From IMG/VR virus record IMGVR_UViG_3300024496_000011: a stretch of 64,000 nucleotides of DNA, one strand, 5' to 3'. Shown here piece after piece: positions 1,337 to 38,433 of this stretch; the stretch's first letter is position 1, and the number at the start of each line of letters is the position of its first letter. The notes under the pieces were generated by a model. It saw only the letters and a list, made by a program, of their open reading frames with translations. It was not told the DNA's origin and did not search any database. The position numbers and the translations under genes are program-made. The stretch comes from a virus.

Positions 1337-3614
1337 ACTCTCCCTCCTCTACTGTACTTAACTCACTTAGCAAATCTTGAAGATTGGGTTTTTCTTCTAC
1401 TACTTCATCAGTCTTAATATCATAAGTATTTTGATAGTAAGAAGTTTTCCACCCGTACTTGTATGTAGTCAAAAAGTCATTTGCCATTACAGAAACTGGA
1501 ACTTCATTGTCATCATAGTTCTCTGGATTGTAACTCCAGTTTCCAGAAATTGCCTGATCAAAGAATTTTTGCATCACAGCAACAACATTAATATAACCAC
1601 GATTGGACTCCATATCCCAAAGAAGCGTATAGTTATTCTTAAGAGCATGATATTGTGGAACAATTTGTTTGAGTGGTCCCTTTTTACTTTTCTTAACGGA
1701 CAAGAATCCGCGAGGTGGTTCGATTCCATTTGTTGCGTTTGACACAACGGAACTGCTCTCCGATGGCATTTGTGCGGACAGTGTTGAGTGCCTGAGACCG
1801 TGTTCCAAGATAGATGCTCTAAGATTTTCCCAATCATGCTGAAGGTTTATGGATGAAATTTCGTCTACATCTTTTTTATAAGTGTCGATTGGAAGAATGC
1901 CATCTGCATACTTGGTGCGTCCAAAATATTCACAATAACCCTTTTCTTTAGCAAGTTGGTTTGATGACTTCAAAAGGTAATACTGGAAAGATTCTGACAA
2001 ACCATGAACAGCATCCCATGCTTCCTGAGAATCATAATCGAATCCAAGTTTTGCCAAATAGTGTGCAAGACCAATAAACCCTATACCAAGAGAACGACGC
2101 GCCTTGGTGGCGATTTCTGCCGCCTCTACGGGGTACTTTTGATAGTCAATCAACTCATCCAAACCACGAACAGAAAGATCACAAAGTTCTTCAAGTTCTT
2201 CATCAGACTTTACCTTTCCAACATTGATAGCTGAAAGAATACAAAGAGCAATCTCACCCATCTTATCATCAATATGATGAATTGGATCAGTAGGAAGAGT
2301 AATCTCTTGGCAGAGATTGGACATATTCACCTTATCTTTAAATGAAGAATGAGAGTTGCAATGATCAATATTCATAATATAGATCCTACCCGTCTCAGCT
2401 CTTTCTTTAAGGAGATTGAGAATGAGTTCTTGTGCTTTAACAGTTTTTTTCGGAATGGACGAATCCTTTTCATATGCACAGTAGAGCTCATCAAAACCAG
2501 CGAGTCCAAAGCAATCATAAAGTCCAGGTACATCATGTGGGGAGAAAAGCGTGATCTCACCATCTTGAATGAACCTCTCATAGAAGAGTTTGCTGATTTG
2601 AATGCTGTAATCAAGTTTGCGAACACGATTATCCTCCGTACCCTTATTGTTTTTAAGAACAAGAATATCTTCTATTTCTTGGTGCCAGATTGGGAAGTGG
2701 ACTGTCGCGGATCCACCTCGTATGCCATTCTGCGTGCAACATCTGACAGTTGCTTCAAACTTCTTGAGAAATGGTACAACACCCGTGTGTTGAACTTCTC
2801 CCCCTCTGATTTTGCTGTTGATGCCACGGATCCTACCAGCGTTGATGCCGATTCCCGCCCTCTGTGCAACATATCTACCAATAGCCATATCAGAGCTAAA
2901 GATAGAATCGAGGGTGTCATCAACATCAACAAGAACACAACTAGCAAATTGTCTAAGTGGCGTTCGCACTCCTGCCATGATGGGAGTTGGGATGTTGATT
3001 TTGTGCTTGGAGATTGCGTCATAATACCTCTTAACATATGACATTCTAGTTTCTTTTGGGTACTCTGCGAAGATAGTGAGAGCAATCATCATATACATGA
3101 ATTGCGGAGTTTCATATACTCCACCACCGCTTCTATCTTGCACGAGGTACTTATCAACGACTTGACGTAGACCTGCATAAGTGAACAAATAGTCGCGGTC
3201 ATGATCAATATATGAATCAACTTTATCAATTTCTTCTTTTGAATACTTGTTAAAAATATCATTATCATATACTTCTCGATTTACACAATTGTAAATATGG
3301 TGCTCAAGAGAAGGCAATTCTTTCATCTTTCCATAAAGTTGCTTACGGACTGCAAAAAGAAGCAGACGAGCAGCAACATATTGATAGTTAGGATGCTCCA
3401 AATCGATTAAATCCGATGCAGAACGAATCAAGATTTCTTGAATTTCTGCGGTAGTAATTCCATCATAAAACTGAATACCCGAAGTCATCTCAACTTGACT
3501 CGCAGAGACCCCCGCAAGACCCCTACATGCCTCCTCAACCATCAAATGCATCTTATCTAGGTCAAGAGATTCAATTCGACCATCACGCTTTTTAACCTTT
3601 GTACCGTTGCTCAT
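1317..3614 (-). CDS. nrdA: ribonucleotide reductase class Ia alpha subunit with N-terminal ATP cone
   Basis: VKKRDG ATP cone, PTPIMAG, ASCVL, SNLCQEI active site, C-terminal CESC. Confidence 0.98.
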   Translation of the reverse strand: MSNGTKVKKRDGRIESLDLDKMHLMVEEACRGLAGVSASQVEMTSGIQFYDGITTAEIQEILIRSASDLIDLEHPNYQYVAARLLLFAVRKQLYGKMKELPSLEHHIYNCVNREVYDNDIFNKYSKEEIDKVDSYIDHDRDYLFTYAGLRQVVDKYLVQDRSGGGVYETPQFMYMMIALTIFAEYPKETRMSYVKRYYDAISKHKINIPTPIMAGVRTPLRQFASCVLVDVDDTLDSIFSSDMAIGRYVAQRAGIGINAGRIRGINSKIRGGEVQHTGVVPFLKKFEATVRCCTQNGIRGGSATVHFPIWHQEIEDILVLKNNKGTEDNRVRKLDYSIQISKLFYERFIQDGEITLFSPHDVPGLYDCFGLAGFDELYCAYEKDSSIPKKTVKAQELILNLLKERAETGRIYIMNIDHCNSHSSFKDKVNMSNLCQEITLPTDPIHHIDDKMGEIALCILSAINVGKVKSDEELEELCDLSVRGLDELIDYQKYPVEAAEIATKARRSLGIGFIGLAHYLAKLGFDYDSQEAWDAVHGLSESFQYYLLKSSNQLAKEKGYCEYFGRTKYADGILPIDTYKKDVDEISSINLQHDWENLRASILEHGLRHSTLSAQMPSESSSVVSNATNGIEPPRGFLSVKKSKKGPLKQIVPQYHALKNNYTLLWDMESNRGYINVVAVMQKFFDQAISGNWSYNPENYDDNEVPVSVMANDFLTTYKYGWKTSYYQNTYDIKTDEVVEEKPNLQDLLSELSTVEEGECESCAV

Positions 3615-4579
3615 ATTTTCTTCCAGGTAGTAAATTTAAGTTTTGCTTCTAATCCAGAGTAAGTATTTGATTCTATCACATTTTGAACGTTAAGTCCAGA
3701 TAAAACCATATCATTGATGTCTTTTTCTTTTATTGTTGAAGGCCAGATGACAACTTTTTGTCCATCTTCGATAACACGGGAAATTCTTGATAAGATTTCT
3801 GAATTACGTGGTTCGTTATCGTATATCCAAACACAATCACAAATACCCCACTTAGCAACATCACCATCAGCTCCGCAAAGAGCAATCGCGTTGCGAATGA
3901 AAGTTGAGTCGAATGGACCTTCGGTGATGTAGACAGTTTCACTTTTTTGGACTTCATCAAGACCATAGATTTTTGGTGCATCGTCACTGAGCATTATAGT
4001 AATGTATTTAATCTTGCTGGAACTTAAAGATCTTCCTTGAAATCCAACAAGAGTATTTTGATAGAACAAAGGAATAACAATCCTAGGTTCATCTTTAGAA
4101 GTATCATCGAAGACTTCTTTTAGGGAATTAGTCCACGATTTAAACTGATCTGTGTAATAAAATTTATCCGGGTTTAGTTTTCTATTCTCTAGATACTTTT
4201 TTGCATCAGAATTTTCGGATGCTTTTGGTAAGTTTATCTTTGATTTAAACTTTGGCGCTTCAAATTTAAATACAGGTTCATCGACAACAAAGTTTTTACC
4301 CGTATTTCCCGATTTAAATTTTTCGAAAGTATATTGTTTATAGATTACGGAATCAATTTGCTTTAAAAAATTATTAAAAGAAATATTAATACCACAGTTA
4401 TGACACTTAAAGTTTGTATTAGTTTTTACTTGGTATAAATATCCTCTTGCTTTGGTTTTATTTTTTTGAGAATCGCCACAAATAGGACAACGAAAGTTGT
4501 AAAGATTATGCTTTACTCTTTTAAATTTTTGAAATCTAGAAGAAATCAAATTGATGTATTTAACATCAATAAAATCCAT
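3611..4579 (-). CDS. gp61: DNA primase (T4 gp61-like)
   Basis: Zn finger CPICGDS...CHNC; TOPRIM YITEGPFDS and DxD-like motifs. Confidence 0.95.
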   Translation of the reverse strand: MDFIDVKYINLISSRFQKFKRVKHNLYNFRCPICGDSQKNKTKARGYLYQVKTNTNFKCHNCGINISFNNFLKQIDSVIYKQYTFEKFKSGNTGKNFVVDEPVFKFEAPKFKSKINLPKASENSDAKKYLENRKLNPDKFYYTDQFKSWTNSLKEVFDDTSKDEPRIVIPLFYQNTLVGFQGRSLSSSKIKYITIMLSDDAPKIYGLDEVQKSETVYITEGPFDSTFIRNAIALCGADGDVAKWGICDCVWIYDNEPRNSEILSRISRVIEDGQKVVIWPSTIKEKDINDMVLSGLNVQNVIESNTYSGLEAKLKFTTWKKI

Positions 4580-4746: not shown

Positions 4747-5094
4747 TTATTTAGTTTTAACTTGTTCGGTTAAAGAATTTATTGAAGAATTTATAAAATC
4801 TGTTACAAATGGAACAAACAACAAAGCAAGTGCTACAACACCTGCTGCCATCCATTTGAACTTAGAAAGTTCGTCTACTTTTACTTCAAGTTTACCCATT
4901 TTTTCATTGATATCCACATCACTTCTTGCACAATTAAAAATTCTTTCATCATGAACTGCAAGCATTTTACAAATATTCTGATTTGTTTCACTGAGAGTTT
5001 GAATGGCAGCGTCTACACGCTCTACCATTTCCTCATGAATTTTCACTCTTTCTTCAAGAACCGCAACTTTAATCTTTGAGTCTTGTCCGAACAT
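4747..5094 (-). CDS. coiled-coil protein with C-terminal transmembrane helix (115 aa)
   Basis: Heptad-like N-terminus followed by WMAAGVVALALLFVPFV. Confidence 0.75.
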   Translation of the reverse strand: MFGQDSKIKVAVLEERVKIHEEMVERVDAAIQTLSETNQNICKMLAVHDERIFNCARSDVDINEKMGKLEVKVDELSKFKWMAAGVVALALLFVPFVTDFINSSINSLTEQVKTK

Positions 5095-5099
5095 TGTCT

Positions 5100-5315
5100 T
5101 TAAGTTGATTGTTTTTTAGGATCCCAACGATTTCTGGAATTTTTTCCTAATCCAATTATCTTTTTTCTTCTAGTCATTCCCATAACAGGATCAAAACCAG
5201 CAGTTGGACCCTTTGCTTGAGCGGATCCAGAAAAACCACCAGATCCTCCTGGAGCATTTGCGACCATTTGCTCTCTTATTATTTCAATTATCCTGTCCAG
5301 TTTCTTCTTTTCCAT
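5100..5315 (-). CDS. small late protein (71 aa) containing a copy of the mature major-capsid N-arm motif GPTAGFDPV
   Basis: Start reassigned to MEKKKLDR (ATG at 5315); motif identical to gp23 sequence encoded at 34334-34360. Confidence 0.75.
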   Translation of the reverse strand: MEKKKLDRIIEIIREQMVANAPGGSGGFSGSAQAKGPTAGFDPVMGMTRRKKIIGLGKNSRNRWDPKKQST

Positions 5316-5688
5316 TGTAGATTTTATACAGTTCGGACAAACAATACATATCAACCTGAATGTTACTCACACTAGACTTTGGATACTCTGGTAACTTACC
5401 CAAAAAAATAATAAAAGATTTAACTACATTCCACAAATCTTTTTCAAGTTTAAAAAATAACATTGGAGTTGCCGCTTCACCAAATATATTATAGAGAATA
5501 ATAAAGTGATTTAAAATCAAGTGAGTTTTCAATTCACCTGATTTTTTATATCGCTTCAATAATCTTTTAATGTACTTAAAATGATTTAAATCTTTATCAA
5601 AATCTTCTTTGGTTACCGCTTGAGGATTTTCATAGTTTTTTATTGCAAATAAAAGAAAATTATCATCATTCAATTCAGTAAATAACAT
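5284..5688 (-). CDS. conserved T4-like phage hypothetical protein (134 aa)
   Basis: LFAIKNYENP...EDFDKDLNHFKYIKRLLKRY pattern typical of T4-like cyanophage genes in this block. Confidence 0.75.
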   Translation of the reverse strand: MLFTELNDDNFLLFAIKNYENPQAVTKEDFDKDLNHFKYIKRLLKRYKKSGELKTHLILNHFIILYNIFGEAATPMLFFKLEKDLWNVVKSFIIFLGKLPEYPKSSVSNIQVDMYCLSELYKIYNGKEETGQDN

Positions 5689-5700
5689 AGACTATTAAAT

Positions 5701-6465
5701 TCAAGCAGGTGGATAAAGTGGAGTATTACCAGTAGTAATTCCAGACATTGCAACAAGAACTTCGGTCTTGACTCTCATTTCACCTTCAACTCCCATGTAA
5801 GTTGTAACCCCAACCCATCCCTCATGAGTTAAAGCGTATGAAGTTCCTTGTGCTACTTCAATTCCAGCATCAGCAACACCATAAACTGATCTAGCATATC
5901 CATCAGCAAGTCTTGCGAATCTTAATATATCACCTGTACTAATTCCAGCACTAATTGTTGAAGCAAGAGAAATTGTCGTTGCTCCAATGCTATTAATAAC
6001 AACATTATTACCATTGTTTACTAGAGCATCACCAACAACTACTCCAGTTGCCCCATTTAAAACACTTGACGAAATAACATTTGTTCCAATTCCAGCAGAT
6101 GCTGTTGCAGTTCCAGTATATGTAATTGGTGAAAAACTTCTAGCGGCAATATTTGCTGCACTGAATGTACTATCGAGAACAGTATACTTAGGTAATTCGC
6201 TAATATCAAATTGAACTCCAGAAATAGTAGCACCGCTTAAATTGGAGGTAGAAGCAATTGAAAGTTGTGTTGCACTTGTAATTCCCACAATTACAGCATC
6301 ACCATAATAAGTACCCGTTCTAGATCCAAAACGAATAACATCACCAACTGCTGCAGCACCTGCATTGCCAAAAGTAGTACCACTACCGGTCACAGTCAAA
6401 GTTTGATAGTCTAAAGATACTGTACCACCAGAACCTTTAGCATCATTATTTCCCCAGAGTGCCAT
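5701..6465 (-). CDS. putative virion structural/decoration protein (254 aa, G/T/S/V-rich beta protein)
   Basis: MALWGNND N-terminus, EGWVGVTTY...RVKTEVLVAM C-terminus; TATAAATA late promoter at 6500-6507. Confidence 0.7.
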   Translation of the reverse strand: MALWGNNDAKGSGGTVSLDYQTLTVTGSGTTFGNAGAAAVGDVIRFGSRTGTYYGDAVIVGITSATQLSIASTSNLSGATISGVQFDISELPKYTVLDSTFSAANIAARSFSPITYTGTATASAGIGTNVISSSVLNGATGVVVGDALVNNGNNVVINSIGATTISLASTISAGISTGDILRFARLADGYARSVYGVADAGIEVAQGTSYALTHEGWVGVTTYMGVEGEMRVKTEVLVAMSGITTGNTPLYPPA

Positions 6466-6499: not shown

Positions 6500-6507
6500 T
6501 ATTTATA
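6500..6507 (-). promoter_or_regulatory. gp55-dependent late promoter (TATAAATA)
   Basis: Exact T4 late consensus directly after a terminator and 35 nt upstream of the 254-aa gene. Confidence 0.8.
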
Positions 6508-6894: not shown

Positions 6895-8595
6895 TTACAT
6901 TAAAGATCCTTTACCATGTTTGGAAATCATTTGTTGTCTCACAAAATCTAACGCTCTTTGGGAGGTCTCTTTATGTCTTTTCATTCTTGCTTCTCTTTCT
7001 GCTGGAGTTTCTGGTTTTGATGCAGATTGTTTTGCAGGAGATGTTGAAGAACGAGCACCCATTCCACCACGCTCAAGTTGTCTATCCTTCATTCGATCAG
7101 AATCTTCTTCAGAAACAGTTTCTGGTTTTCTTTGCTTCATTAATGCTTGTTTTCTAAGAGTAGCAATCCTAGTGTCAAGAGAAGCTCTTTGTTTTTGAAC
7201 TTGAAGTTCTTGAGGGGTTAATGCAGTAGAATCTGCGACTGCTTCTTCAACTTTTTTAGGAATTCTTTCATGTTTTGTTTTTGCAAAATCACGAATTTTT
7301 TTCTCACTCATATCATCAACAATTTTAAGAACAGCATCACTTACTTCAGATCTTGGAGTCTGACCTCTTTTTACCGAAAGAGCAAGTCCAAATATTTTTT
7401 GCTGCTGCTCACTAGCAGCTTTTTCATTGATTACTTCCTCAGATACTGCTTTTTTAATTTTTTTAGCAGCAGTAACAGTTCCAGTAACACCAGATTTTAC
7501 GCCTTTACCAAATTCAGATGCTCCTTTTGCAGCAACTCTTAGTGCTTTTCCTGCAGTTTGAGTTGCTGCACGATGCCTTTCCATTCCAGATTGGTATGCT
7601 TTTACTGCGCCAAAAATTCCTTTTGCAATTGCATCTCTTACTGGTTTCTTAGATGGTTGCTTTTCAACAGCTTTTTTAATAGCAACTGATTTTTTTCTGA
7701 CAGTTGACGATGCAGGACTTGACTTAAATCTTCGAGTAGTTCCATACTTTTGAACTGCTGCCTTTGTTGCTTGAGACGGTGCAGTTCCTTTTGGAAGTTT
7801 TTGAGGACTTTTCTTTTTACCAAGTAAAGTTCTTGCTTCGTTTAATGTATATTCTTCCGAAATTTCAAAAACAAAATTTACAAATTCCTCAAGCCCAAGT
7901 TCTTCAATAAGAATATCTAAACCTTCTTCATTTAAACCCTGTTCATAAAAATATTCAGTCGCAATATCAACAGTTTCAGTAAGAACTTCTTCATCAAGTT
8001 CTACCATTTCAATCAATGTTCCACCAAGATTTTCAACTGATTCACCTATTTTAATACCAGACCCAATTGCACTTGTTTTTATTTTATTTTTTACTTGCTT
8101 TTCAACAATTTTTTGATTTTCCTTATTATCAACTTTATCGGTAATTTCAACCAAATCTTCTCTCCAATTGGAGAATCCTTCTTTTGCAACTTTTTTGCTT
8201 CCACCCATTTCATCCTTACCCAACCTACCCGCAATTACATCACCTCTAGTTACTTTGTCATATGGAGGATAATTATTTGCAAGATTGCCATCATTTGTTT
8301 TCTTCGCTTCTTCCATTTTTTGCTTCGCTTTATCTCTCAAAGCCTTCTTCATGGATTCTTTTTCATTACCATCCTTGTCAAAATCCAAGTAATCTGGTTT
8401 TGCTGCTTCCTTGATACCTTTCTTTTCTCTCATTGCCTTTGCTTTTGCAAGTGTTCTTTCTCTGGCAGCATCTTGCTCACTTTTAGGAATAGCAGTCACT
8501 GCACCAAGTCTTTCTGCAGGTTTACCAGGAACTGCAGATTCAGAAACTTGCTCCAGATATACTCTGGAAATATCATTCAGAGGATTGGTTGACAT
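6895..8595 (-). CDS. putative internal head polyprotein (566 aa) containing a DUF3008-like module
   Basis: Late promoter ATAAATA at 8628-8634; KAASEQQQKIFGLALSVKRG...MSEKKIRDFAKTKH resembles DUF3008; repeated xxE-A/S/G junctions. Confidence 0.7.
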   Translation of the reverse strand: MSTNPLNDISRVYLEQVSESAVPGKPAERLGAVTAIPKSEQDAARERTLAKAKAMREKKGIKEAAKPDYLDFDKDGNEKESMKKALRDKAKQKMEEAKKTNDGNLANNYPPYDKVTRGDVIAGRLGKDEMGGSKKVAKEGFSNWREDLVEITDKVDNKENQKIVEKQVKNKIKTSAIGSGIKIGESVENLGGTLIEMVELDEEVLTETVDIATEYFYEQGLNEEGLDILIEELGLEEFVNFVFEISEEYTLNEARTLLGKKKSPQKLPKGTAPSQATKAAVQKYGTTRRFKSSPASSTVRKKSVAIKKAVEKQPSKKPVRDAIAKGIFGAVKAYQSGMERHRAATQTAGKALRVAAKGASEFGKGVKSGVTGTVTAAKKIKKAVSEEVINEKAASEQQQKIFGLALSVKRGQTPRSEVSDAVLKIVDDMSEKKIRDFAKTKHERIPKKVEEAVADSTALTPQELQVQKQRASLDTRIATLRKQALMKQRKPETVSEEDSDRMKDRQLERGGMGARSSTSPAKQSASKPETPAEREARMKRHKETSQRALDFVRQQMISKHGKGSLM

Positions 8596-8607: not shown

Positions 8608-9885
8608 TTACTTTTTTGCCTTATACTTATTTATGAAATTGGTTCCATATGACTTTCCTCCAAATTGGAGATATTGTTTATTAGTTCCAACCGATCCTGG
8701 AGTCATTTTTGCATAGTGTTTAAATGCACCAAGAGTTCCAACAAGAGTATTTGGATGTACTTTATCTCTCATTGGACTATTCATTTCTACTTCAGAATAT
8801 TCCATCAAATCTTTGATCCAAGATTTAAACATATATCCTTCTTCCGTCACACATATCAAATGATTAGTTCCTCTACGCATTACTTCACCAATTAATCCTG
8901 TATTTAAATTTTGAATTTTATCGCCTATTTTAAATATTTTTCCCTTTACATAATTTTCACGAAGATTTTTCATATCATACTTAGGGGCAATATCCCATAG
9001 AGAATAACTTTCCTTTTTAACCTTAGATTTCTTAACTTTCATTCCCTGTCGAACAGCATCAAAAAGTGTTTGTGTTTCTCCATCATCTAATGTTTTTGGT
9101 GTTCCTCTACGGAAAGAATTAAAATCATTATCTAATACTGCTTTTCTCATTTTAGATGCAGACATTCCCTCGATACCTTCTGCATCAGCATCTCTTACTC
9201 CAGCAGATACAACTCGAATTAAATCAAAATTATATAGTTCTCCATTATATTTTTGGGCAAGGTTTTCAAATTCTGCCTGACGATCAGAACCCACAACAAT
9301 ATTCACACTAGTATATCCTTCTTCTTGTGCTGCAACAAGAACATCAAAGATTGTTCTCATATATGGGTCATTAATAATGTTCTCCTCAAAATCTGGGAAC
9401 ATTTTTTTCATGTAAGAAATTTTGATATCAGGATCTAGTGGATTTTTCTTTGGATCTTGAGTTCTTGAAGGATAAATCTTAATATCTCCACCAACAGAAA
9501 TCCTCTTTGCCGACTTAAGAAGTTTATCATGACCAATTGTTGGTGGGTTAAAGCGACCAAAAACAATAGTAAGTGGTGATAGTTCTTCTTCAGGTTGCTC
9601 TTCTGGTGCTTGTCCTGATACCGCTTGAGGTTGTGGTGCAGGTGCTTGTGTTGCTTGAGTTGCTTGAGGTAATTGAGTTTTTGCTTGTTTATTTACTGGT
9701 TGCTTTTCTCCCTTTGTCGGTCTACCATCAGTGAATTTAAGTTTCCCTTCTTCTGTTCTTGCAACTGTTTTGCCAGATCTATCTACCCATCCACCATGAC
9801 CATCTCCACGCAATCCAAGTTTTTTCGCCTGCATAGATGCTTGCGATTGCGTTGCTTCTGATAAAAATTGGAAGAAACTCTTCAT
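8608..9885 (-). CDS. cytidylyltransferase-like (HxGH) nucleotidyltransferase with capsid-targeting-like N-terminus
   Basis: FGRFNPPTIGHDKL HxGH motif, GMSASKMR KMSKS-like motif; N-terminus MKSFFQFLSE. Confidence 0.85.
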   Translation of the reverse strand: MKSFFQFLSEATQSQASMQAKKLGLRGDGHGGWVDRSGKTVARTEEGKLKFTDGRPTKGEKQPVNKQAKTQLPQATQATQAPAPQPQAVSGQAPEEQPEEELSPLTIVFGRFNPPTIGHDKLLKSAKRISVGGDIKIYPSRTQDPKKNPLDPDIKISYMKKMFPDFEENIINDPYMRTIFDVLVAAQEEGYTSVNIVVGSDRQAEFENLAQKYNGELYNFDLIRVVSAGVRDADAEGIEGMSASKMRKAVLDNDFNSFRRGTPKTLDDGETQTLFDAVRQGMKVKKSKVKKESYSLWDIAPKYDMKNLRENYVKGKIFKIGDKIQNLNTGLIGEVMRRGTNHLICVTEEGYMFKSWIKDLMEYSEVEMNSPMRDKVHPNTLVGTLGAFKHYAKMTPGSVGTNKQYLQFGGKSYGTNFINKYKAKK

Positions 9886-9933
9886 ATTGTTTATTTTTAT
9901 ACTTTTATTTATTTTTTTCTGCTTTTATATTTA

Positions 9934-33172: not shown

Positions 33173-34603
33173 TCACATGAGGTTCTTAACAGCAACTCTT
33201 CTGTAGTAGCGGTTCTGGTTGGTCTGAAGACGACCGAGACCCTGATTGGTTCCTTCTGCAAATGGGTTAGCAACAAGACCATAACGGGTCTTAAAGCCAA
33301 TCTTAGGCTGGAAGGAGTTCTCACCAACGGCACGAACCATTTGGAGAGGAACATAAGGACAATAGAAGAGTCCAGCGTCATAAGGGGAAGCACCCTTATA
33401 ACCAACAACATAATACTGGTTACCTGGTGAGGTGTTACCCGCAGTGAGGTTAGCAGAATATGGGTCAATGTAGACGCGGAATTTGCCCATTAGAGTACCA
33501 GCAAAAGTATTGCCGGTGTCATCAACAGACAGATTAGCGTTAAGTGCAGGGGTGTAGTCTAGAACACCAGCCATGGTTAGTGCTGAAGCAACATCAGCAG
33601 AACACATGATGATGTTACCCTTTCCGCGACGAGTTCTTTGTGCGATTGCGTTAGCATCACGCTCGATTTGGAATAGGAGACCCTTGAACTTCTCAACTGA
33701 CCAACGACCGTTGGAGTCAACATCGAGGTCGAAGATACCAGCTGTTGCAGTGTTTTGAACAGCACCCTGTTCAGCAACCTTATAGATGGTTCTGATAACT
33801 TCGCGGTTGATTTCAGCAAGAATCTCAGTTGAGAGAATGTTTGCTAATTCCGCTTCAGCATTCAGACCATGGATTGCCTTGAGGTCTTGAGCGAGTTCTA
33901 ATGAGTACTCAGCTTTCAGAGCGCGTGACTTTGCAGTAACAGTGACTTTCTCGATTGAGAATGCCATCTGGTTGAATGCATCACCAGCTGTACCATCAAG
34001 GTTTTCTGCGTCGCCAGTAACCATACCCTGACCTACATTGTAGGCGGTTGAGGTTGCGCTACCAACTGGGTTTAGAACTGATGGGTTGCTTCCTGCTTGT
34101 GCAGTAGTACCCATACCAACGCCAACTTCAGTAAATCCTGCAGCCTCATCAAAACCTGCGTCTTGACCGGAGAATGCAGTATCTACTTCATTGAAGAAGG
34201 TTTCAGTTCCGCTTTGGTTGGTATAGCGGGAACGCATTGCGAAGATAAGTCCAGTAGGACCACTCATTGGTTGAACGCCAGCCAGGTCATAAGCGACCAG
34301 GTTGGGCATTGAACGACGAATGAGTGAAATCAGAACTGGATCAAAACCTGCAGTAGGACCACCAGCAGCGGAACCGCCACCGAAAGCACCACTAGCACCA
34401 GCAGCATTACCGCTGTTGGTTGGTGACTCCATGAGCATACTCATGGAACCGTTGTCGAAAGCAGATTGCTCTCTTAAAAATTTTTCTTGGTTTTCGAGCA
34501 GGACAGCGGTTACAGCTCTACGATGAGAATCTTTGATAGGGTCGATACCCTGATAATCTAGTAGAGGTGCCCACTTTTCCTGCAGATGCTCAGAATGGAA
34601 CAT
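33173..34603 (-). CDS. gp23: major capsid protein (T4 gp23)
   Basis: EKWAPLL, GVQPMSGPTGLIFAMRSRY, SRALKAEYSLELAQDLKAIHG, FYCPYVPL, KTRYG. Confidence 0.99.
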   Translation of the reverse strand: MFHSEHLQEKWAPLLDYQGIDPIKDSHRRAVTAVLLENQEKFLREQSAFDNGSMSMLMESPTNSGNAAGASGAFGGGSAAGGPTAGFDPVLISLIRRSMPNLVAYDLAGVQPMSGPTGLIFAMRSRYTNQSGTETFFNEVDTAFSGQDAGFDEAAGFTEVGVGMGTTAQAGSNPSVLNPVGSATSTAYNVGQGMVTGDAENLDGTAGDAFNQMAFSIEKVTVTAKSRALKAEYSLELAQDLKAIHGLNAEAELANILSTEILAEINREVIRTIYKVAEQGAVQNTATAGIFDLDVDSNGRWSVEKFKGLLFQIERDANAIAQRTRRGKGNIIMCSADVASALTMAGVLDYTPALNANLSVDDTGNTFAGTLMGKFRVYIDPYSANLTAGNTSPGNQYYVVGYKGASPYDAGLFYCPYVPLQMVRAVGENSFQPKIGFKTRYGLVANPFAEGTNQGLGRLQTNQNRYYRRVAVKNLM

Positions 34604-35867: not shown

Positions 35868-36521
35868 TTACAATGAATTTAAAAACTCATTGAATAATTT
35901 AATTTTATGTTCTTCTAGTATTCTTTGATCAACTAGAGCATTAATTTTTCTTTTGGTATTCTCTGCTAATTTCTCTCGCAAAATACCACCATCCCAAATC
36001 CACTCTTTACCTTCCATAATTCCCTGAACAAAAGCGTCAGGTGCAGAAGGATCTGCAACAATATCTGCTGCAGTTGCAAGCATAAAATCTTCACCAACTT
36101 CTTTAAATCCTTTAGTATTTTCTCTTAAAGAACCAATTCCACGAGATGAAACACCAAGAGTCACTCCATCTTTGAGAAGTGATTCGGCAATTTTACCCAT
36201 TGGAGTGGATAAAATTTGTGCCTTACCAATAAAGTTATTACCACTTTGCTTGAGTTCTGTAATTTTATGAGAAACTCTATCAAGATTTACAGTAGGTCCA
36301 TCTGGATGACCTAATTCGCCAAGTGCTCTACCTTTTTGAACATAATTTTCATTATAACGGTTAACTTCTCTTTCCATAATTTGGAAAGGATACATTCTAC
36401 CATTACGATTAACACATTCACTTTGGAGGAAAACTCCCTGAATATAAAGTTGTTTTTTACCACCTACAGTTTCGGTGATAACTTCTACTTTTTCTACTTC
36501 TTCTCTGATAAGTTTCATCAT
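35868..36521 (-). CDS. gp21: prohead protease (T4 gp21)
   Basis: NRNGRMY, ALGELGHP, GVSSRGIGS, DIVADPSAPDA. Confidence 0.97.
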   Translation of the reverse strand: MMKLIREEVEKVEVITETVGGKKQLYIQGVFLQSECVNRNGRMYPFQIMEREVNRYNENYVQKGRALGELGHPDGPTVNLDRVSHKITELKQSGNNFIGKAQILSTPMGKIAESLLKDGVTLGVSSRGIGSLRENTKGFKEVGEDFMLATAADIVADPSAPDAFVQGIMEGKEWIWDGGILREKLAENTKRKINALVDQRILEEHKIKLFNEFLNSL

Positions 36522-37069
36522 GCTTGTCCTGAGATTTGTACTTGTTGGTAATAAAGAGTTCCTGAACCGACACCATATGCAGAAACTTTATTTGAAATCG
36601 AAACACTAGCATCTGTTGGGGCAAATGCAGTTAAAATTCCACTAGAGTTATTATCTACGGTCATTCTTGTTTGATAATAACCATTTATACCGGCACTCGT
36701 ATCAACTGACAAAACTTGTTTATGAGTGAAATCATAATATGACTGACCACCAACTGTTAAAGATACATAATCACCAACCCCAAATGGAACTTGAGTTCCT
36801 TCTGGAACAATAATAGTTGTTGTTGTACCTGTAGTAACTCCAACAACTTTATTTGATGCTTTAGTCAATGCAAGAGTTTCTGATCCACCAGAAGAAATAT
36901 AATAATCAGTGGAAGTTGCTGAAGGATTTCCTCCCACAGAAATATGAGCTGCTCCTCCAACAGCAACCACTCTCAAAACACTTGATTGTACTGAAAATGC
37001 AGATGATGTTGTTGCAGCACCTGCAGTAAATGTAAATGAGGAACCTGCCCCAACTGGTCTGTGAGCCAT
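36518..37069 (-). CDS. putative virion structural protein (183 aa, beta-rich)
   Basis: Late promoter at 37094-37100; position in the head cluster. Confidence 0.7.
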   Translation of the reverse strand: MAHRPVGAGSSFTFTAGAATTSSAFSVQSSVLRVVAVGGAAHISVGGNPSATSTDYYISSGGSETLALTKASNKVVGVTTGTTTTIIVPEGTQVPFGVGDYVSLTVGGQSYYDFTHKQVLSVDTSAGINGYYQTRMTVDNNSSGILTAFAPTDASVSISNKVSAYGVGSGTLYYQQVQISGQA

Positions 37070-37107: not shown

Positions 37108-38433
37108 TCAAGTTAAGTCATAAAAACTCAAAGCACCAATACAATTTCCACTTCCAGAAATTGCTCTAACTGCTAATGTAAATGTGTCACTAACTTTTGC
37201 TTGAGTTCTTCCAAGTTGTAAATCCCAATTATATTCTGTATTTTCGTTTAAAGCAGTTGATGCTTTATTTGCAGATGAAATATATTCTGCTCTAACAACT
37301 GTTCCACCAGACATAGAAGTTGCAGTTGTATTTTGCTCCACATTTGGAGATGAAGAATTTACCCAACTTCCGCCACTGAGAGTTGCATTTTTAATGAGAG
37401 CGACTTCATAATAAACTGATGTTGCACTATCTGGAAGTGCATTAATTTGATTCGGAAGAATAACTGCATCTTCTCTTCCTGCTTTGAGACGAATACTTAC
37501 AAGAGGAATAAAAGTTGTAGATGCTACTGAAACTAGTGCATCTTGTCTTGCTACATCTGATGCAACCCTTTTTTCATAACCACCATTAGATTGAATAGAA
37601 ACGCATATCTGTTTCATTGTTGATGTAGATGTTGTGACTCCAGTGTTTAATATTTCATATCTAACTGGAAGTGTAGCAGTTGTCATATATGTACTATTAA
37701 TTGTATTTGCATGATTAAAGATATGAGTAATATGAAAATTACCATCCTTATTTACAAATCCGCAACGAACTGCACCAACACCTAACCACTCATATTCGGT
37801 GAACATAATTTGTGCCATTGATAAATCCAATCTATGTCCACTTGAATTTTTAGATGTTGTTCCCACTCCAACACCATCATAAGTATCAATATTCCATTCG
37901 GATTGTGGAACTTTAATTTCTGTGCTAATACCAGATCTTTCAGTTCTCATTACCCAGTATACTGTGGTAATTCCAGTAGAATCAGTTGCTTGTTCTAAAA
38001 CTACGCCATTTGTTGATGATGCATAACCAACTCTTTGAGTAAGATTTGCTTTTGGTGATGCCATTACAAATGTTTGAAAAACTTGTAATGCTTTACCAGG
38101 TTGATATGAAAATACTCTTTTACTTTCTCTTACAATAGAACAACCTGCAGTAGTACCAATTCCTAATGTTGCAGTACTTTGATGTGTTATAATTCCAACA
38201 GTAGATCCTGCTCCAAGAATTACATCATCAAAATCACCATCTTGAGAATATCTATGAGTTGAGTCAAAAAGAGTAAATGGTTGTGATACTTTTAATCTAC
38301 CAAAAAGATCTCCTGAAAATCCTTGACCTAATGGATCAAAAATATTTCCAAATTTATCTGCTTGTAAAAAAACCTCAAAAAGACTTCTTTCTTGGTTCAA
38401 ATAATCTTGAGTATTCTTATTCCACTGAGCCAT
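37108..38433 (-). CDS. putative virion structural protein (441 aa, beta-sandwich/lectin-like)
   Basis: MAQWNKNTQDYLNQERSLFEV, DLFGRLKVSQPFTLFDS, YEWLGVG; in the head cluster. Confidence 0.65.
   Translation of the reverse strand: MAQWNKNTQDYLNQERSLFEVFLQADKFGNIFDPLGQGFSGDLFGRLKVSQPFTLFDSTHRYSQDGDFDDVILGAGSTVGIITHQSTATLGIGTTAGCSIVRESKRVFSYQPGKALQVFQTFVMASPKANLTQRVGYASSTNGVVLEQATDSTGITTVYWVMRTERSGISTEIKVPQSEWNIDTYDGVGVGTTSKNSSGHRLDLSMAQIMFTEYEWLGVGAVRCGFVNKDGNFHITHIFNHANTINSTYMTTATLPVRYEILNTGVTTSTSTMKQICVSIQSNGGYEKRVASDVARQDALVSVASTTFIPLVSIRLKAGREDAVILPNQINALPDSATSVYYEVALIKNATLSGGSWVNSSSPNVEQNTTATSMSGGTVVRAEYISSANKASTALNENTEYNWDLQLGRTQAKVSDTFTLAVRAISGSGNCIGALSFYDLT

Follow-up and report, generated by a model that had tools for sequence, protein, structure and literature searches.

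The major capsid protein of bacteriophage T4, gp23, is cut after Glu65 (PMC9546572, PMC9958956, PMC7136217). Before the head expands, gp23 residues 66-105 have no ordered structure and lie within it, probably in contact with the scaffold (PMC9546572). On expansion this tether moves outside, where it forms the N-arm (about residues 92-105) and the 25-residue N-fist, residues 66-91 (PMC9546572, PMC9958956, PMC7136217), and the N-fist/N-arm contacts four neighbouring subunits (PMC9958956). The head-length mutations A66D, A94V and G97S map to the 66-105 segment (PMC9546572), and five subunits at the portal vertex have disordered N-fists (PMC7136217). The role of this flexible N-terminus before expansion has so far only been inferred.

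The T4 internal proteins IPI, IPII and IPIII are basic, are borne in the head and carry a propeptide, the capsid-targeting CTS, that ends in hydrophobic-x-Glu (PMC9026906). Residues 4 and 7 of the CTS are reported to be critical for targeting and residues 8 and 10 for processing, and the CTS alone suffices for packaging (PMC9026906); although T4 head assembly is a textbook system, the sorting of proteins into its scaffolding core is still called mysterious (PMC9958956). T4 gene 61.1 was listed by Nolan 2006 among conserved ORFs without a function (PMC1524935), and our literature search found no link of 61.1 to gp23 or to the CTS. In the cyanophages, T4-GC 426 has been described as a 'structural protein' (Sullivan et al., 2010), and 17 peptide counts were obtained for it from S-SM1 virions by mass spectrometry (PMC3037559 Table S8).

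Here we have analysed a 64,000-nucleotide stretch of viral DNA (IMG/VR record IMGVR_UViG_3300024496_000011), which we refer to as the window. It encodes a 71-aa protein in which the flexible N-terminal segment of the phage's own gp23 recurs as a free-standing copy. The protein shares its genomic slot and N-terminal module with T4-GC 426 (phrog_696), and can be considered a short version of it (phrog_3286); the forms of T4-GC 426 of 170-290 aa have an extra C-terminal domain and no propeptide.

The small gene and its surroundings

The gene for the 71-aa protein lies close to a primase gene, and its product can be divided into the segments listed with its neighbours below.

3611..4579, minus strand: gp61 DNA primase (phrog_47, E 6e-84)
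4747..6465, minus strand: tight four-gene run that includes the small gene
4747-5094, minus strand: DUF7201 coiled-coil protein, between the small gene and the primase gene
5100..5315, minus strand: small gene, 71 aa, stop codon at 5100-5102
5103..5165, minus strand: residues 51-71, basic K/R-rich tail with a conserved GSR.RW
5166..5183, minus strand: residues 45-50, MGMTRR, aligned with LISLIRR of the window gp23 and VMGMVRR of T4 gp23
5184..5210, minus strand: residues 36-44, GPTAGFDPV, the same as gp23 residues 82-90
5211..5270, minus strand: residues 16-35, Gly-rich copy of the gp23 N-fist and site of the co-variation with gp23 of the same phage
5271..5315, minus strand: residues 1-15, amphipathic helix ending I-R-E, a putative propeptide, capsid-targeting piece and gp21 site
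5284-5688, minus strand: DUF7207 protein, directly upstream of the small gene
5701-6465, minus strand: Gly-rich virion-type protein of 254 aa, first gene of the run
6500..6507, minus strand: TATAAATA, T4 late-promoter consensus, 34 nt upstream of the gene for the 254-aa protein

The first 32 nt of the small gene overlap the 3' end of the DUF7207 gene, and the DUF7201 gene alone lies between the small gene and the primase gene, all on the same strand. From its sequence and position, TATAAATA probably heads the run as a late promoter. The motif ATAAATA has 32 matches in the window, 30 of which are on the coding (minus) strand, and many of them are found about 20-40 nt upstream of the starts of structural genes (for example at 6500, 11001, 35850, 40669, 43577, 53942 and 61200), a placement that is consistent with a late-promoter motif.

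Several other features of this region can be noted. The DUF7201 protein has a hydrophobic C-terminal segment, and its homologue in S-SCSM1 is annotated 'holin-like'. The gene at 6895-8595 (minus strand) codes for a highly charged protein of 566 aa with a DUF3008 domain (E 1.6e-11). The gene at 8608-9885 (minus strand), with ATAAATA just upstream at 9906 and 9928, codes for a 425-aa nucleotidyltransferase-like protein that starts MKSFFQFLSE-A, very like the T4 CTS MKTYQEFIAE; cyanophage homologues of this protein (cytidylyltransferase/NMNAT) have been reported in the virion proteomes of S-SM1, S-SCSM1 and S-CREM2.

The 71-aa protein matches phrog_3286 at E 1e-7 and phrog_696 at E 5e-10, and no Pfam family was matched by it or by its homologues. 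AF2 gave a helix at residues 3-19 and coil or disorder for the rest. Judged by this prediction and by the missing Pfam match, the HK97-fold body of Gp23 (PF07068) is absent. The putative propeptide is a 15-residue helix rich in Lys and Ile which ends in IRE and contains no aromatic residue, and it does not follow the 10-residue T4 CTS pattern (aromatic at 4, Phe at 7, Ile at 8, Glu at 10). Among the small-protein homologues E15 is invariant and M17 is invariant or nearly so. A PDB profile search with the cyanophage small-protein family gave nothing meaningful.

The window also codes for head proteins, including a portal protein and the following.

33173..34603, minus strand: gp23, major capsid protein (Pfam Gp23, E 7.5e-148)
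34313..34438, minus strand: gp23 residues 56-97, which run from the LME site through the N-fist equivalent, the 9-mer and the start of the N-arm to RR
34430-34438, minus strand: LME site of gp23, preceding the N-fist-equivalent segment
34656..35810, minus strand: gp22-type scaffolding core protein (Pfam T4_CASP, E 6.7e-81), a candidate docking partner
35868..36521, minus strand: gp21-type prohead protease (Pfam Peptidase_S77, E 1.3e-38), the presumed processing enzyme of the small protein

Two genes are situated between the portal and protease genes (36518-37069 and 37108-38433, minus strand), where T4 has the core genes 67 and 68. One of the pair is a DUF7243 protein (E 1e-27) and the other, of 441 aa, has no Pfam match; they may be cyanophage components of the prohead core.

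Likeness to gp23 and co-variation with it

The 9-mer GPTAGFDPV is identical in the small protein (DNA 5184-5210) and in gp23 (34334-34360), and the underlying DNA agrees at 24 of 27 bases, the three differences all being at synonymous third positions. Over the ungapped stretch from the N of '...NAPGG' to DPV, 17 of 25 positions are identical (68%), and both proteins go on to reach a common RR. When the small protein was shuffled with its composition preserved, none of 5000 shuffles gave a 9-mer match to the six-frame ORFs of the window, and the longest match, of 8 residues, was found once in 5000. A search of the phage's own 126-kb genome record with gp23 returned only gp23 itself and the small ORF (E 2.9e-6), and no gp24-like paralogue. 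The N-terminal match between the two window proteins is missed by BLASTP with composition correction, because the copied segment is Gly-rich. With profiles the match is clear: hhalign of the small family with cyanophage gp23 N-termini gave a probability of 97.7% and an E of 1.8e-12, aligning small-protein residues 17-48 with gp23 residues 63-94.

A hydrophobic-x-E site precedes the segment in both proteins (IRE in the small protein and LME in gp23), and in the profile alignment the LME of the window gp23 lines up with the LTE cleavage site of T4. With the exact cyanophage cleavage site placed by this alignment with T4, the copied segment corresponds to the T4 gp23 cleavage site, the N-fist (66-91) and the start of the N-arm. 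In gp23 the tether is joined to the HK97-fold body and ends up outside, whereas the window form is a free peptide with a basic tail. The earlier note on this DNA had described the 71-aa ORF as a near-copy of the mature gp23 N-terminus; its coordinates, translation and identical 9-mer were confirmed, as were the two x-E sites and the basic tail after the copied segment, and its view of the protein as a mimic of this N-terminus, here the N-fist and the start of the N-arm, is supported.

We found more than 730 metagenomic homologues of 64-72 aa that are conserved over their full length, N-terminus included, and the shared motif is kept in more than 700 homologues. A tblastn search at E <= 1e-3 gave only six phage records, as the query is short and of low complexity; when the limit was raised to 10, many cyanophages were found. 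In isolated cyanomyoviruses the gene occupies a fixed slot, in the order Gly-rich virion protein, DUF7207 (T4-GC 198), small gene, DUF7201 (T4-GC 201), gp61 and nrdA, as inspected in Syn33, P-TIM68, S-B43, S-SCSM1, P-SSM7 and S-CREM2. The homologues range from 58 to 297 aa, with a constant N-terminal module and a basic C-terminal part that varies from about 15 to 250 residues. Homologues of the Syn33 type lack a propeptide and begin directly at the module, and Syn33_189 matches phrog_696, the T4-GC 426 family, at E 2.4e-98.

Members of the family have been found in virions by mass spectrometry. In addition to the S-SM1 peptides of T4-GC 426, seven unique virion peptides were reported for S-CREM2 ORF160 (PMC10665884 Table 3). 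S-SCSM1 ORF97 is a 'virion protein' in a GenBank record whose labels follow a CsCl-virion proteome; its detection is taken from this label and from what the paper states about its figure, the supplement being without ORF97 peptides. In the 297-aa S-CREM2 ORF160 the N-fist copy is followed by a long basic tail that contains Cys/Trp motifs, a layout which suggests that one module has been put to use as a handle for a variety of cargoes.

It can be seen from the cyanophage genomes that the copied segment follows the gp23 of the same phage. Sequences of gp23 and of the small gene were gathered from 20 cyanomyovirus genomes. When searched with the gp23 N-terminus, all five genomes of the first search gave exactly gp23 and the small gene, and the small gene was the extra match in 12 of 15 further genomes. 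Over the 18 residues before A-G-F/Y-D, the small protein agrees on average at 10.3 positions with gp23 of the same phage and at 7.0 with gp23 of other phages. The co-variation that the earlier note proposed to test was found: with 15 lineage representatives, none of 100,000 permutations scored as high as the natural pairing (p <= 1e-5, z about 5.9). Lineage-specific features recur in both genes: an unusual motif with Tyr and Arg in S-T4 and Sf-CH8, the run GFTGAAAP in S-CREM2, and a shortening by four residues in one IMG/VR genome (G001). Among the cyanophages sampled, the Tyr/Arg version of the gp23 N-fist region was seen in S-T4 and Sf-CH8 only.

The copied segment varies much faster than the gp23 shell (50% versus 87% identity for SynMITS9220M01); as a rule, no other part of gp23 is as variable as the N-fist region. 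At identical residues, codon identity was 41.6% within genomes and 38.4% between genomes. As the within-genome value is near the between-genome level, it is in the protein sequence that the likeness is maintained. Recent gene conversion is thus improbable, and on these figures we rejected it as the general cause of the co-variation. P-TIM68, with identical codons at 12 of 16 identical residues, may be an exception that reflects one recent conversion event. The constancy of genomic slot and layout across the clades also speaks against independent duplications in each of them, which we consider unlikely.

T4 gene 61.1 and other T4-like phages

When the T4 genome was searched with gp23 residues 46-110, one other place was found, gene 61.1 (E 5.4e-6), which lies directly upstream of the primase gene 61. 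Its 54-aa product (phrog_1823; long forms phrog_2086) starts MKTFKEFIKE and continues with a copy of T4's own N-fist and a Lys-rich tail. Like the window protein, it has a propeptide ending in x-E, then x-M-V-A, a copy of the N-fist of its own phage and a Lys/Arg-rich tail, and it co-varies with its own gp23. A propeptide ending in x-E together with a basic tail, features first noted for the window protein, is the general layout of the family. Two differences are evident. The T4 propeptide is a canonical CTS whereas that of the window is a different amphipathic helix, and the cyanophages, unlike T4, have the DUF7201 gene between the small gene and the primase gene.

The start of gp61.1 fits the CTS pattern, with the critical residues 4, 7, 8 and 10 all kept, and the start motif M-K-x-Y/F-x-E-F-I-x-E occurs at only three sites in a near-wild-type T4 genome (61.1, ipII and ipIII). 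The T4 internal proteins share this motif with gp61.1 but, unlike the window protein, have no gp23 copy. Comparison of T4 gp61.1 with T4-type gp23 by hhalign gave E 2e-13 over 49 columns that span the cleavage site, and among PDB entries gp61.1 is matched best by gp23 residues 58-94, in an alignment that again crosses the cleavage site. No PDB entry, including the solved T4 head structures, has a gp61.1 chain. The vertex protein gp24 and the small protein both derive from gene 23; unlike the small protein, gp24 is a complete capsid-fold paralogue of gp23 without the N-fist. In Aeromonas phage 31.2, the T4 gp23 N-terminus matched the 61.1 homologue at E 1.4e-8 and gp24 at 0.004.

The T4 query alone found 61.1 homologues in 1485 phage records. 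In phages of Aeromonas, Vibrio, Acinetobacter, Shewanella and Pseudomonas the homologue is just upstream of the primase gene, and the small ORFs as read in four of these five phages (PspYZU05 excluded) have the N-fist copy after an x-E site and before a Lys-rich tail. The slot beside the primase gene is thus the same in six non-cyanobacterial T4-like phages, T4 included, as in six cyanophages. For five non-cyanophage genomes the natural pairing with gp23 had the top score of 120 permutations, with three permutations tying. Orthology of the cyanophage and T4 genes is argued from synteny and layout, the direct profile similarity being weak: hhalign of the two small families gave E 0.0026 and a probability of 11.6%, covering only E-x-M-V-A...G. 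Cross-clade comparisons of small-protein and gp23 profiles were not significant, and each small family therefore tracks the gp23 of its own clade. The occurrence of such a gene beside the primase gene throughout the T4-like phages suggests that a factor in head assembly has so far gone unrecognised.

In KVP40, KARL-1 and Thanatos-1 the 61.1-type peptide forms the C-terminal 45-50 residues of a protein of 112-158 aa (phrog_2086). The N-terminal domain of this protein, which ends V/F/T-E immediately ahead of the N-fist copy, falls outside the known families and may represent a large propeptide. In a T4 time-course, 61.1 is classed 'early' in one column and 'NA' in the other (PMC9697503 supplement), which we read as early RNA without an assigned protein class. 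In T4 (MZ375356.1, 12500-19000) gene 61.1 adjoins 61.2, which matches Pfam AdfA, anti-DarT factor A, at E 3.8e-137, and the block between genes 41 and 61 (dmd, sp, 61.2 and 61.1) looks like an anti-defence island.

Possible roles in the head

The reading that we prefer, to which we give a probability of roughly 0.45, is that the small protein is an internal head peptide which is targeted to the prohead, processed by gp21 and docked by mimicry of the phage's own gp23 tether. The N-terminal helix ending in hydrophobic-x-Glu would be a capsid-targeting propeptide that is removed by gp21. With the gp23 tether inside the prohead shell and presumably beside the scaffolding core, the look-alike segment would take the same kind of contact, whether with the scaffold core, the inner shell or the gp23 tethers, and through this contact the small protein would become incorporated into the head. 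It would remain inside in the mature head, the basic tail probably lying on the DNA. The basis for this reading is what is shown here, namely the self-mimicry, its co-variation with gp23, the spread of the family to T4 and the T4 targeting motif, while the presence of homologues in virions comes from the published papers and the GenBank record. The context fits, as the window codes for gp21 and gp22 and the gene is in a run of virion-type genes headed by a putative late promoter and not far from the nucleotidyltransferase gene with the CTS-like start. Set against it are the propeptide of the window protein, which lacks the aromatics of the T4 CTS, the Syn33-type homologues without a propeptide, the 'early' class of 61.1, the T4 head structures without a gp61.1 chain and the weak direct profile similarity of the cyanophage and T4 forms. 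Since the CTS alone packages proteins in T4, the N-fist copy must do more than targeting.

A more specific version, which we put forward tentatively as possible rather than probable, is that this free tether copy beside the primase gene, which co-evolves with gp23 from coliphage T4 to marine cyanophages, works by like-with-like pairing inside the prohead, with the gp23 tethers or with their site on the scaffold. If so, it would represent a principle of self-mimicry for capsid targeting or for the control of head size or expansion. The classical T4 CTS would then be a minimal form of the same self-mimicry, because the final eight residues of the gp23 propeptide (F-x-x-F-I/L-x-E) are similar to it.

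Pairing could also serve regulation rather than packaging. The free tether would pair with the approximately 900 gp23 tethers or compete for the scaffold, tuning shell-core contacts, head size or the timing of expansion, and packaging would be a by-product. Such pairing, or a fast-evolving partner in common, explains how a hypervariable low-complexity segment is tracked without a synonymous signal. The gene is kept across T4-like phages as a core morphogenetic factor would be, 61.1 being among the conserved ORFs of the Nolan list, and the T4 head-length mutations fall in the copied segment. To our knowledge, no phenotype is known for T4 61.1, which counts against a regulator, and classical T4 head genetics did not recover the gene, suggesting that it is not essential; we consider a regulatory role unlikely. 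We regard as rather improbable the explanation put forward in the earlier note, in which the cleaved peptide fills the lattice at the portal or pentons in place of a missing N-fist/N-arm and its basic tail ties these sites to the DNA. In its favour, the copied segment is exactly the one that forms the T4 N-fist/N-arm and touches four subunits (PMC9958956), the five disordered N-fists make the lattice irregular at the T4 portal vertex (PMC7136217), a peptide bound to gp23 surfaces would be expected to co-vary with gp23, the homologues are virion proteins and the 126-kb record has no gp24 paralogue. T4, however, has gp24 and also 61.1, so the lack of gp24 is not the reason for the gene and the main premise is lost. 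On the expanded T4 shell the N-fist sites face outwards, whereas a protein that has a CTS and a basic tail would be expected within the head, and the homologues bear C-terminal extensions of 130-250 residues. Moreover, the shell has changed far less than the N-fist, so that the co-variation is not readily accounted for by adaptation to shell grooves, and the T4 head structure papers examined model no such peptide, mentioning only an unassigned helical density under gp24.

An anti-defence function would account for the need to resemble the gp23 of the same phage, if the copy, packaged or made early, were a decoy that binds an abortive-infection sensor of the host for nascent gp23 (Lit/Gol- or CapRel-type) without activating it. 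T4 61.1 is beside dmd, sp and 61.2 (AdfA) and is 'early' in one data set (PMC9697503), the CTS-bearing internal proteins of T4 include an injected anti-restriction factor (PMC9958956), and the Gol trigger is within the first quarter of gp23 (PMC3014915). The conserved Gol core, however, is just beyond the copied part and is not included in it, no sensor is known for the copied segment, and anti-defence genes are usually patchy whereas this gene is fixed beside the primase gene from coliphages to cyanophages. We therefore judge a decoy quite improbable. That the small protein has no function of its own, being a chance likeness of low complexity or a passive conversion tract of gene 23, is largely refuted and highly improbable. 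The segment is rich in Gly, Ala and Ser and goes unscored by BLASTP with composition correction, and the codons of P-TIM68 could mark one recent conversion. Against this stand the shuffles, the overall codon signal at background, the hundreds of homologues conserved over their full length, the detection of protein products in virions and the conservation of the gene from T4 to the cyanophages.

The preferred reading, of an internal head peptide docked by tether mimicry, offers a concrete and testable function for T4 61.1, which has none assigned, and for an abundant cyanophage virion protein. The small protein is also a natural probe for the binding partner of the gp23 tether, and if the segment is a targeting signal it could provide a new cargo-loading tag for T4-type capsids.

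A recurrent database error is corrected by these results. Small ORFs of the 61.1 and T4-GC 426 types are often annotated as 'major head protein' or 'major capsid protein', for example Syn33_189, PSSM7_198 and those of Shigella phage A2 and Yersinia phage PYPS2T. These labels are wrong and are an artefact of the common N-terminal segment; 'major head protein' is a misnomer here because the small proteins have no HK97-fold domain, and the RefSeq label of this name derives from phrog_696, which is the small family and not gp23.
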